From the IMG/VR virus record IMGVR_UViG_2850808358_000010: a stretch of 11,607 nt of DNA; one strand, 5' to 3'. The position numbers were made by a program. Source of the stretch: a virus (Duplodnaviria; Heunggongvirae; Uroviricota; Caudoviricetes). Below, one piece after another: positions 1 to 2,796 of the stretch; position 1 is the stretch's first letter, and each line of letters opens with the position of its first letter.

Positions 1-2796
1 TTAACGCGTATTTTTCAGCGACTCCTGTGCAAAATACGCTGTTGCTTTTTTTAATATATCTCGCTCAAGGCGAGCTTCATTTAACGCCTTACGCAGTTGC
101 AGAATTTCAGATTCCAGTTCAGCCACCGTGCGGGAACCAGGAGTACCGAGCCCTTTTCTGGCGGCGGTAACCCATTGTCCTAAAGTGCCTTCAGGAAGGG
201 ATAATCGGGAAGCGCCTTCACTGATCGAAAGTTGATTTTCAAGAACCGTTCTGACAGCTTCGGCTTTGAACTCTTTAGAGTAACGTTGGGTTTTTCTGCT
301 CATTATTAGCTCCTTCTGATGCCATTCTATTTCAGGAAGGAGTGTCCGTTAAACTCAGGCTACCTCAGCCTGCCAGCTCCTTACGGGTAGTCGGCTTCGG
401 CTTTCTTCCCCTTCCGGGTGCAACAGATTTTCCTGACATGTCAAATCCTGAAATTTTTAATTTCGCGGGTGTAAAAATTTGACGGGGCGGGCAGTCCGGA
501 AGACGTCAGGTCACAGGGATTTGCCCCGCCCCTCCCTACAAGTGAGAATAATTATCACCTGATTCGTTCGCGCGCTGTTTTCGCTTTATGGCAGGGCCAG
601 CACAGACTCTGCAGGTTGCTGTCTGCGTCTGTTCCGCCATGCGCTTTCGGGATGATGTGGTCGACGGTTTTCGCCTCGCTCACCACACCGACACGCAGAC
701 ACAACTGACACAGACCTTTATCGCGCTTCAGAATACGGGCACGAATCACCGTCCATTTTGAGCCATAGCCACGCTGGTGGCGGCTCAGTCCGCGCTGGTG
801 CTGCACCCAGCCTTCACCGCGATGTTTATCGCAGTAACCCGAACTGTCTGTGGTTGTACCTGCACATCCACGCTTACGGCAGGCACGTGGGATTAGTGAT
901 GGCATAAATACCTCATACCCTGCGAAATGTTTACCACGATAAAAAGGCTACTTAATGCACTGAGTGCGGATATACTCCTGTGCCCCTTCCAGTTGCATCT
1001 GCATCGTCATCAGCCGCTCTCTGAGGGTGAAATAATCCCGTTCAGCGGTGTCTGCCAGTCGGGGGCTGGTTGCATTATCCACGCCGGAGGCGGTGGTGGC
1101 TTCACGCACTGACTGACAGACTGCTTTGATGTGCAACCGACGACGACCAGCGGCAACATCATCACGTAGAGCATCATTTTCAGCTTTCGCATCAGCTAAC
1201 TCCTTCAGGTATTTTGCATCGAGTGCAGCAACATCACGCTGGCGTATCTGCATGTCAGTAATGATTGCGGTCGCCTGGTTGAGTTTTTCCTTCACATTAT
1301 CGCGCTGCTCTTTGTAGGTAATGGCGTTATCACGGTAATGATTAGCAGCCAATGACAGGCAGGCGATGATGCAGATAACCAGAGCGGAGATAATCGCGGT
1401 GACTCTGCTCATTGCTGCCCCACAAACAGACTTCACGCTCAATCTCACGACGGGTCATCAGCCCTTTCCATTGCTTACCGCCAGCATATGTCCAGCGACG
1501 TAGCTGGTCACATGCGCCTTTGATATCGCCCTGGTTTATTTTGCGAAGAAGCGTCGATGTTCTGAAATTGCCAGCGCCCACGTTGTAAACGAACGAGTAA
1601 AGAGCGCCGCGCGTTGTTTCCGGTATATCGACTTTGATGTACGGGTTAATTTGTCTGGCGACAGTGGCAAGGTCTTTATTCAGGAGAGCTTTGCATTCTG
1701 CTTCGGTATACGTTTTACCAGGCATGATGTCTTTTCCGGTGTGTCCGTGACATACAGTCCATACACCAATGATATCTTTGTATGGTATGTAGCTGACACC
1801 TTCCAGACCATCGTTACCACCTGGGCCAGTGATTAACACAGATGCTATAGCAACAGCCCCGCCACCAATAGCAACTGCAACAGCCTTGCGTAATGATGGC
1901 GACATTATTCACCTCTCGCAGCCTTACGCTTATCTTCTCTTATTTTGAAATACAGATTCGTCAGATAAGTCAGAAGCCCCAGAAGCAGACTTCCCAGCAC
2001 ACCAATCGCAGCCCACTGTGACGGACTGACCTGATCCAACCACTGCAAAAACCAGTAGCCGGCACTGCCGGCGGAGGTGCCGTAGGCAATGCCTGTTGAT
2101 ATTTTTTCCATCTGATACATATCCCGCCCCCGACAGACCTGTGCTATCGGAAAGAAAAAAGGCCATCAGCAAAACTCTGATGGCCTGAATCACCTTTACC
2201 AATATTGTATGAAAAAACACGCACGTCTAATTGACAATAATTTTCATTTCCATTAAAAAAGATCACGTAGCATTCTTAATTCATGAGGAACTTTACCCGC
2301 CAGCAATCTGAGTAGCGAAAGCTGTTCATCCCCAATGTTTTTGCTGGCGGGTCCTTTTTTCTACGGTCCTCCTCCCCGGAGGGGCATTTCATTATTTTTC
2401 TAATCATTACTGGTGAGAAGGCGGAAGAAAAAGCCAGTTCTTCGCCCCTAAATAACAGCATGATTCCAGTCCATGCAAAATCTGATTTCCAGCTCACACA
2501 TACCGAGCACTGTACAAAAAACCGCCAGCCAAGGCAGTTAAGAGTGTGTTCCCGGGTTTGCTTAGAATATTTTGTAAGTTGTCCGAAGAGATATTTACAA
2601 CACCAGAATGATGCATTATCAGTCCCCTGCCAGAGGTTCACTACGTAACCTGACCGACAATGCACCATTCTGGTGCTGAAAAAAGAGCACTGGAACTGCA
2701 ACAAAACAACATCACAGAACAGGAGATGGTAAGGAGTCAGACATTCCCACACAATATTGTGTCAGTGCAAATAACAACCTTCGTCTCAAATCTCGC

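Follow-up and report, generated by a model that had tools for sequence, protein, structure and literature searches.

The DNA analysed here (the window) is an 11,607-nucleotide viral stretch (IMG/VR record IMGVR_UViG_2850808358_000010) that most likely derives from a degraded lambda-like prophage of Shigella or E. coli, and our subject is a 676-bp interval within it, at positions 2121-2796. On the minus strand the late region runs through a DnaB-like helicase gene, an insertion sequence (IS) of the IS4 family, the antiterminator gene Q, isrK, C4, an ORF6N gene, a tRNA array and the 676-bp stretch, and then the lysis genes: an S21-type holin, lysozyme and Rz, with an HNH nuclease and an IS3 fragment beyond them. 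The stretch thus lies between a phage tRNA-Gly and a class II holin that belongs to the S family of phage 21 (1905-2120, minus strand; Pfam PF04971, E = 1.5e-35), which has the dual start MYQM and its ATG at 2120-2118. The nearest complete record, E. coli FDAARGOS_944, is 99.4% identical across the stretch, and the sequence that follows tRNA-Gly (window 2586-2801) is identical in Shigella flexneri SFBU1023. A preliminary description had placed the stretch in the toxin or moron slot of phages that carry Shiga toxin (Stx) genes and had offered two readings, a decayed cargo site or a locus for non-coding RNAs. We confirm the features that it listed, some of them in corrected form. We find a mosaic of two non-coding modules, and its best-supported RNA, which goes beyond that description, is a covarying minus-strand trailer of the tRNA operon that has its own terminator.

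The two modules are inherited separately in other E. coli and Shigella prophages, and only 9 of 5,426 complete E. coli genomes carry both together. The left module (2121-2498), the leader of the class II (S21-type) holin that anchors it downstream, occurs at 84-87% identity in ~1,500 records from ~1,430 of these genomes. It adjoins a class II holin in all intact prophage loci inspected and is elsewhere a remnant left after holin deletion. A distant blastn search for diverged relatives of this module returned the 84-87% lineages only. The right module (2513-2796, minus strand), whose upstream anchor is the phage tRNA array, forms the tRNA operon's 3' trailer; its portion 2513-2780 is found at ~70% identity in 223 of the genomes, directly after the phage tRNA-Gly in every locus inspected. 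What lies downstream of these copies varies, and includes other holins (as in a DH5alpha prophage), TerB or DUF3927 genes and an unnamed gene. Left matches end at 2498 and right matches begin at 2513, which leaves a mosaic joint of 14 nt (2499-2512) found in neither module family.

The right module carries the clearest signal of RNA structure. Viral contigs, metagenomes and E. coli genomes supplied 63 distinct trailers (alignment A2), each of which extends from the CCA end of tRNA-Gly to where a long hairpin ends; they were gathered by a 23-nt pattern in the 3' arm of that hairpin, folded to a consensus with RNAalifold and compared with 500 shuffles. The consensus has 49 pairs. Pairing amounts to 96.8%, compared with 92.4% in shuffles, and none of the 500 reaches the observed value. 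Cells changed on both sides of a pair number 143 versus 44 in shuffles (again 0 of 500), and the double changes fall in 16 of the 49 pairs. The compensatory changes that the preliminary description had proposed to look for in an alignment of relatives are clear in this module. Sliding the 3' partners by 1-3 columns lowers pairing to 28-54%. The alignment holds 607 G.U cells and 34 A.C cells, so that 96.8% of cells pair when it is read as minus-strand RNA and 78.2% when it is read as plus strand; the trailer RNA is therefore assigned to the minus strand.

The trailer contains two structured domains. Domain 1 (2686-2769, minus strand) is a multi-stem element closed by UGCACUG (2769-2763) pairing with CAGUGCU (2692-2686), with two or three small covarying hairpins inside it and a U-run after it (2685-2680). 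Double changes affect all pairs of helices 2 and 3 of the consensus and 4 of the 5 pairs of helix 4. One of the inner hairpins corresponds to the palindrome already noticed just 3' of tRNA-Gly (2749-2762), which is indeed perfect and proves to be the window's version of a small covarying hairpin; relatives have GCGUA..UACGU or CACAU..AUGUG at the same position. Domain 2 (2594-2682, minus strand) is a long, G.U-rich hairpin with consensus arms at 2682-2649 and 2636-2594 and ~31 bp in the window. The 15-bp inverted repeat described earlier exists, but it is only the core of this larger element, whose 31-nt arms (2594-2624 and 2652-2682) lie 27 nt apart. The minus-strand fold has an energy of -48 kcal/mol (z = -7.9), compared with -31 kcal/mol for the plus strand. 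Helix 5, which belongs to this domain, is 98.6% paired, with an AU to GC change at one pair in 19 sequences and many G.U pairs, and a more diverged variant (L072 type), read by eye, keeps the hairpin paired through further double changes. A hand tally, with which the minimum-energy fold agrees, finds 30 of the 31 arm positions paired in the minus-strand form, 4 of them as G.U, and the hairpin thereby offers the near-continuous double-stranded RNA of ~20 bp or more expected of an RNase III substrate.

The module closes with a predicted intrinsic terminator (2514-2539, minus strand) in which AACUGCC and GGCGGUU flank a UUGGCU loop ahead of a U-run. It has 7 bp including one G.U, a 6-nt loop, U6 and a fold energy of -10.6 kcal/mol, all within the usual terminator geometry, and right-module homology stops at 2513, just past it. 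A hairpin of the form AACCGCC..GGCGGTT with a T-run follows the long hairpin by 40-160 nt in 97 of 100 distinct relatives. The trailer begins at the CCA end of tRNA-Gly (2797), lies on the same strand and closes at the terminator, the arrangement of an RNA of the 3' external transcribed spacer (3'ETS) type. Rfam holds no family matching the window's trailer or its L005 variant. When GTDB was scanned (one genome per species) for the 3'-arm pattern of the hairpin, only E. coli and Shigella flexneri were recovered, besides a lone match in Acetobacterium that is probably due to chance. The trailer is thus a well-supported conserved structured RNA, with compensatory changes above controls, and a candidate new family. 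The same phage tRNA-Gly more often precedes an unrelated trailer family (the L067 cluster, 43 of 79 distinct trailers), which appears to be non-coding and has a terminator-like hairpin ~215-240 nt in.

At the other end of the stretch, scan, inverted repeats and fold agree on a strong late-sense intrinsic terminator before the holin (2151-2186, minus strand). The preliminary description had placed it 35 nt from the holin; in refined coordinates, a 10-bp stem (2186-2177/2169-2160, 6 G-C) with a 7-nt loop is followed by a U-rich tail at 2160-2151 (UUUUUUCUUU) that ends 30 nt before the holin ATG, and the geometry is that of an intrinsic terminator. It is intact in phage-like contexts, with stem mismatches where the holin is deleted and in some Shigella-type copies. 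By strict criteria, a terminator lies in the last 150 nt of 30 of 49 distinct class II-holin leaders versus 10% of shuffles; by looser criteria and within 400 nt, all 15 of 15 sequence-unrelated leader families have one, versus 13% of shuffles. Prophages PP2 of E2348/69 and Sp10 of Sakai share this terminator-before-holin design in other sequences. Across 1900-4750 of the window, a scan found 8 terminator-like sites compared with 3.2 +/- 1.8 in shuffles, and the z-scores of the folds lead in the same direction. RNA polymerase would be expected to stop at both predicted terminators, 2514-2539 and 2151-2186.

The U-tract of the holin-proximal terminator may also pair with the holin start. Positions 2160-2145 and UAUCAGAUGGAAAAAA (2117-2102) form an inverted repeat of 16 nt (2102-2160, minus strand) that is 81% complementary, lies within the minimum-energy fold and covers Met4, the second start codon. 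Dual-start holins are known to be controlled at translation, by the sdi structure of lambda S and by a stem-loop at the start of phage 21 S. The predicted pairing over the S21-type Met1/Met4 start resembles these, with the upstream terminator U-tract as the partner here, and could have a regulatory role; part of its conservation is imposed by the encoded residues MEKI.

On the plus strand, antisense to the late operon, the left module contains a terminator-like hairpin with a U6 run (2295-2360), as noted before: a perfect 12-bp stem (2295-2306/2341-2352) around a 34-nt loop that itself holds an 8-bp GAAA-capped stem. The U tail is CCTTTTTT at 2353-2360, and the two stems together are followed by CCUUUUUU. 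Its energy is -31.6 kcal/mol (z = -4.3), and with a structured loop of 34 nt it is atypical as a terminator. The hairpin is kept in every lineage with a full left module and is absent from the Stx1d relative L008, whose share of the module is limited to the holin-proximal 110 bp. The promoter-like site pointed out previously (2231-2259, plus strand) is about 35 nt upstream of the hairpin and consists of TTGACA (2231-2236), a 17-nt spacer and TAAAAA (2254-2259). The -35 hexamer matches the consensus perfectly and the -10 is poor; because it lacks the final T, the site falls below the consensus-scan threshold. Both hexamers are unchanged in 19 of 19 distinct left-module variants, and the site may function as a promoter. 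The hairpin would then be a candidate 3' end for an antisense small RNA (sRNA) of ~100 nt, its strand and transcription being suggested by these elements. A second small hairpin, followed by an interrupted U-rich tract, was found by the scan at 2367-2384; it is listed on the plus strand, but its strand is ambiguous, as the C/U differences that lineages show in its pyrimidine arm would be consistent with a hairpin on the minus strand as well. Inside it, the G-run at 2381-2384 has 4, 5 or 6 copies among relatives that are 98-99% identical, as in a slippage-prone tract. Crude duplex searches of the candidate RNAs against the holin start gave nothing above shuffles, such predictions being poorly suited to sequences of this length. 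A cis-antisense RNA of the Hfq-binding type is a reasonable but unproven candidate.

The left module also persists where the holin does not. Orphan copies stand next to iss on ~640 IncF plasmids and next to pap in CFT073. Stretches of ~345 bp of the leader occur in pO83_CORR (L004, 4001-4344) and in CFT073 (L007, 3001-3348); the plasmid copies adjoin Rz fragments as well as the serum-survival gene iss, and in CFT073- and Nissle-type chromosomes the leader is ~2 kb from papI. In these orphans the late-sense terminator stem is mismatched and the large hairpin is intact. In relatives of 87% identity, such as L002, an STnc100 match (5494-5682, minus strand; 114 bits) lies ~115 nt upstream of the left module, within an interval of ~880 bp that is unannotated from a DNA methyltransferase gene to the 63-amino acid (aa) hypothetical open reading frame (ORF) adjoining the holin. 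As STnc100 precedes the left module there, several non-coding units are strung together. Among near-identical relatives on viral contigs (L022, L029, L017, L018 and L023) the alignment breaks at ~2127-2130 and at ~2662, both probably through IS insertions in Shigella-type genomes. The first break is a ~1.45-kb insertion with an apparent 4-bp duplication, 7-10 nt before the holin ATG, that separates the holin from its leader; the second lies inside the 5' arm of the long hairpin.

We found neither a conserved ORF nor any trace of decayed cargo in the stretch, which agrees with the earlier impression that it contains no real gene. Its sole long ORF (2276-2752, minus strand; 158 aa, GTG start) is present as described. 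It spans the mosaic joint and is frameshifted in the nearest relatives by the G4/G5/G6 run at 2381-2384. In L002 and some relatives the NCBI annotation pipeline (PGAP) calls a 63-aa 'hypothetical protein' whose final 13 codons coincide with the terminator hairpin; its counterpart in the window contains a stop codon and lacks an ATG. The alignments of both modules show frequent indels of 1, 2 and 4 nt, and the ORFs of the stretch match nothing in Pfam or PHROGs. We further collected every stop-to-stop ORF of at least 50 aa from more than 300 related loci, removed those overlapping homologues of the stretch, and compared the remaining 15,200 distinct translations with its six frames by tblastn. 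Nothing significant was found; the best E value, 5e-5 per query, is not significant because there were 15,200 queries. Together, the polymorphisms that break reading frames, the joint between the modules and the local tblastn answer the coding question. The assignment to the moron slot holds, since relatives carry cargo at this position: stx1d directly upstream of the same holin-proximal 110 bp, and elsewhere TerB, DUF3927, nanS-p, STnc100 and AgvB.

Known prophage RNAs occupy comparable positions. In enteropathogenic E. coli (EPEC) E2348/69, PasA and PasC lie between an esterase gene and the holin, antisense to both (Pearl Mizrahi 2021, PMC8550237 table S6; Zhu, Shabalina and Storz 2026 preprint); we took their orientation and coordinates from table S6 and from loci L061 and L062. 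They share with the window's plus-strand unit (2231-2360, 175 nt upstream of the holin start) a place immediately upstream of a class II holin and an orientation opposite to the late genes, so that the short plus-strand antisense RNA proposed in the preliminary description is plausible. They are ~80 nt long and end in a GC-rich hairpin and U-tail, with a late-sense terminator between them and the holin, as in the window, and by eye their stem core GCCAGC/GCUGGC and CGAAAG loop motif also occur in the window hairpin. The window hairpin differs in being longer (12 + 8 bp) with a 34-nt loop region, and the upstream neighbour is a tRNA trailer instead of the nanS-p esterase. Outside the holin start, local alignment of the leaders stays within the shuffle range, which gives no grounds for homology with PasA or PasC, and none of the 80 holin loci collected contains a homologue of either.

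Convergent sRNA pairs, STnc100/PasD in sense and AgvB/AsxR in antisense, have been described in the moron slot downstream of PR' in prophages of enterohaemorrhagic E. coli (EHEC) (Tree et al. 2014, PMC4104026); in Sakai Sp10 the pair is STnc100 and AgvB. The window shares with them the slot between Q/PR' and the lysis genes and sense and antisense 3' ends that face each other. Here those ends (~2514 and ~2360) are ~150 nt apart and not adjacent, and the sense RNA is fused to a tRNA operon. The Rfam models for AgvB/AsxR (RF02702, RF02703) and STnc100/PasD (RF02076) have no match at E <= 1 in 1800-4300, whereas the same three models match the relatives L311, L002 and L061 elsewhere in the slot. 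By eye, the published AgvB, AsxR and EcOnc03 sequences have no visible similarity to the stretch. PapR, a uropathogenic E. coli (UPEC) sRNA with a strain distribution like that of the left module, was also considered and rejected; its ends as given by cloning primers (5' CGGGCTGAAGTCCGG..., terminator TCTCCCAGCGCGGGCTTTTTTT) are absent from the stretch, and the only match of the stretch to papI is the 8-nt GCTGGCGG. No homology was found to the DLP12 essD upstream region or to IpeX. More generally, the suggested covariance-model search of the stretch against Rfam matched no known non-coding RNA family, both RNA elements are absent from Rfam and from searchable papers, and no paper came up when the full text of the literature was searched for the sequence motifs.

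The trailer invites comparison with stable-RNA operons. RNAs such as 3'ETS-leuZ (of glyW-cysT-leuZ) immediately follow the final stable-RNA gene of their operon, share its strand and run to the operon's intrinsic terminator. Their likeness to the window trailer, like that of the rrn sRNAs, is one of position and not of homology, and the window trailer, at ~285 nt, is much longer and far more structured than 3'ETS-leuZ and is phage-borne. The sRNAs rrA, rrB and rrF lie between the dual terminators of rrn operons (PMC8144298). The window likewise has a stem and U-run (2692-2680) followed by a second terminator (2539-2514).

As for transcriptional control, lambda-type late operons combine Q antitermination at PR', a short terminated leader (6S RNA, StxS or IsrK) and the terminators of morons. 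The window has Q followed by an isrK-type RNA, and then more terminators before the lysis genes, which only Q-modified polymerase should pass. These lie 1.7 and 2.1 kb past the late promoter, beyond the immunity-like c4/ant module and the tRNAs, and are distinct from tR' itself. Judged by its sequence features, the window follows the same grammar as known prophage sRNA slots, written in different sequences.

We favour, with moderate confidence, the view that the stretch is the untranslated section that separates the tRNA genes from the lysis cassette within the late operon, an empty moron slot filled by two abutting non-coding RNA modules whose terminators insulate the lysis genes. The arrangement is already known in outline for lambda-like phages, in which Q-modified polymerase passes terminators downstream and morons arrive with a promoter and terminator of their own. 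Under this model, the right module would yield an RNA of ~285 nt (2796 to 2513, minus strand), co-transcribed with the tRNAs and ending at terminator 2539-2514. The left module, with its promoter-like site and one or two hairpin-plus-U terminators, would yield the ~100-nt cis-antisense sRNA. Without Q, polymerase from internal promoters (of the c4/ant module or the tRNA operon) would stop at 2539-2514, and any that escaped would stop at 2186-2151; from these predicted stops it would follow that the lysogen keeps holin and endolysin silent. Once the prophage is induced, polymerase that starts at the late promoter by Q and has been modified by Q would pass both of them. For the long hairpin the likeliest role is that of an RNase III or stability element that would separate or protect the tRNA precursor, and it could release a stable trailer RNA.

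Several points weigh against this view. In alignment A2 the 23 pattern-selected 3'-arm columns are not free to vary, and the shuffle statistics are inflated because its sequences are related. The proposed events of termination, read-through and processing, like the antisense RNA, are predictions from sequence. The putative promoter of the tRNA operon (3146-3117) is a mere consensus match that is present in some relatives only, and the -10 hexamer of the antisense promoter is poor. The left module comprises only four or five lineages at 84-99% identity, and with such a handful covariation cannot assign the strand of its hairpins; a C to T change in the 3' arm in the plasmid lineage favours a minus-strand version of the big hairpin. 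An antisense terminator stands by the holin in no more than 3 of 15 leader families, a frequency near that of shuffles.

The insulator model is compatible with another proposal, which we regard as possible though tentative, that the main function is regulation in trans, with the trailer, the plus-strand RNA or both acting in the lysogen as sRNAs or sponges bound by Hfq or ProQ. AgvB, AsxR, STnc100/PasD and PasA/PasC act in this way from the same region of other prophages, the slot and convergent layout match those of Tree et al. 2014, and PasA and PasC are Hfq-bound, abundant and antisense by the holin. Both candidate RNAs end in a hairpin and U-tail, and an A/U-rich stretch precedes the plus-strand hairpin. 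The purifying and compensatory pattern in the right module exceeds the needs of a plain terminator, and the orphan left module is kept on the ~640 IncF plasmids and in CFT073- and Nissle-type chromosomes that lack the holin, although its retention on plasmids may reflect hitch-hiking with iss in one clonal fragment. Neither sequence nor covariance-model searches match a described sRNA family, and the duplex searches against the holin start speak against it as well. A further reading, which we consider unlikely, is that the tRNA-Gly trailer (2796-2514, minus strand) is an undescribed phage-borne RNA family with its own function, made constitutively with the prophage tRNAs and cut at the 31-bp hairpin; it could be a sponge or regulatory RNA acting on host or phage transcripts, or control in cis the transcription and mRNA reaching the lysis genes.

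Conservation at the level of DNA, as linker or boundary sequences for late-module exchange or as protein-binding palindromes, seems improbable to us. Each module stands next to many neighbours, as recombination linkers would, with mosaic joints at the module edges and IS insertions in relatives at ~2127-2130 and ~2662, but a DNA-level role predicts neither compensatory changes nor a 607-to-34 excess of G.U over A.C on one strand, and the terminator geometry of stem, short loop and U-run recurs in sequence-unrelated leaders. That the stretch is instead what remains of a moron gene (toxin, esterase or TerB-like), with hairpins as leftover terminators, is very unlikely. Relatives do hold cargo genes here, the prophage is otherwise degraded and has IS4 and IS3 elements, and the holin-proximal terminator could once have closed a moron. 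Yet the 15,200 translations, those cargo genes included, share no significant similarity with the stretch, nor do Pfam and PHROGs; the modules abut at a clean 14-nt joint; and both halves are conserved as non-coding sequence in hundreds of genomes, with covariation at the RNA level. Of the two readings in the preliminary description, the decayed cargo site gains no support, and the conserved minus-strand structure and recurring terminators bear out a locus of non-coding RNA signals. A small protein, whether the 63-aa ORF or, as in type I toxin-antitoxin pairs, a short hydrophobic peptide, has next to no probability. PGAP calls the former in some relatives, and in the window a 23-codon ORF (MLFCCSSSALFSAPEWCIVGQVT) overlaps the hairpin; but the 63-aa frame is broken in the window and runs through the terminator hairpin for its last 13 codons, the 23-codon ORF is not kept in relatives of alignment A2, with their frequent indels of 1, 2 and 4 nt, and neither matches a protein family.

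The neighbouring genes support the placement in a lambda-like late operon. Q (4698-4303, minus strand; PF06530) is followed by a promoter-like site just downstream (4298-4269, minus strand) and by an isrK RNA of the short terminated type (4262-4186, minus strand; Rfam, 77.5 bits). Next come the C4 antisense RNA (4160-4077, minus strand; Rfam, 71 bits), whose a1/b1 target is at 4275-4223, and sRNA-Xcc1 (3943-3860, minus strand; Rfam, 77.4 bits), within the leader of the ORF6N antirepressor-like gene. The interval 3860-4298 (minus strand), right after Q, resembles the immunity module of P1 or Gifsy phages. The listed 253-aa ORF (3259-4020) probably has its true start further in, near 3834. The phage tRNA array (2797-3107, minus strand) comprises a tRNA with a CAT anticodon, Arg(TCT), Thr(TGT) and Gly(TCC), as identified by ARAGORN, Rfam tRNA matches and the RefSeq annotation of locus L001, which is 99.4% identical. 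The CAT tRNA (3031-3107, minus strand) is Met according to ARAGORN and tRNA-Ile in RefSeq relatives; presumably it is of the ileZ type, decoded as Ile once modified with lysidine. The promoter-like TTTGCA-18-TATTAT just upstream of the array (3146-3117) is present in FDAARGOS_944 and is missing from the L005-type array. Mobile elements, namely an IS3-family orfA, an IS4-family transposase and an rve-type transposase, break up the prophage, and past it come a phage-type integrase and the C-terminus of an autotransporter (all within 1-303, 5202-6314, 8766-9584, 9668-10867 and 11188-11607), a pattern that fits a Shigella-like genome. Megablast and blastn against a phage collection gave trivial or partial matches only, and the elements of the stretch are essentially known from prophages alone.

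None of these findings overturns current understanding. Lysis timing and toxin release in lambda-like prophages hinge on the interval between late promoter and holin, and the stretch presents the bare framework of that interval without cargo. The recurrence of a late-sense terminator before class II holins in unrelated leaders supports insulation of the lysis cassette from the promoters of cargo or tRNA genes. The trailer RNA, carried by ~4% of complete E. coli genomes (223 of 5,426) including a prophage in DH5alpha, is a testable candidate for a new family outside Rfam. Should the antisense RNA prove true, the orphan leader next to iss on IncF plasmids and in chromosomes from extraintestinal pathogenic E. 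coli (ExPEC) may matter in ExPEC and in avian pathogenic E. coli (APEC).

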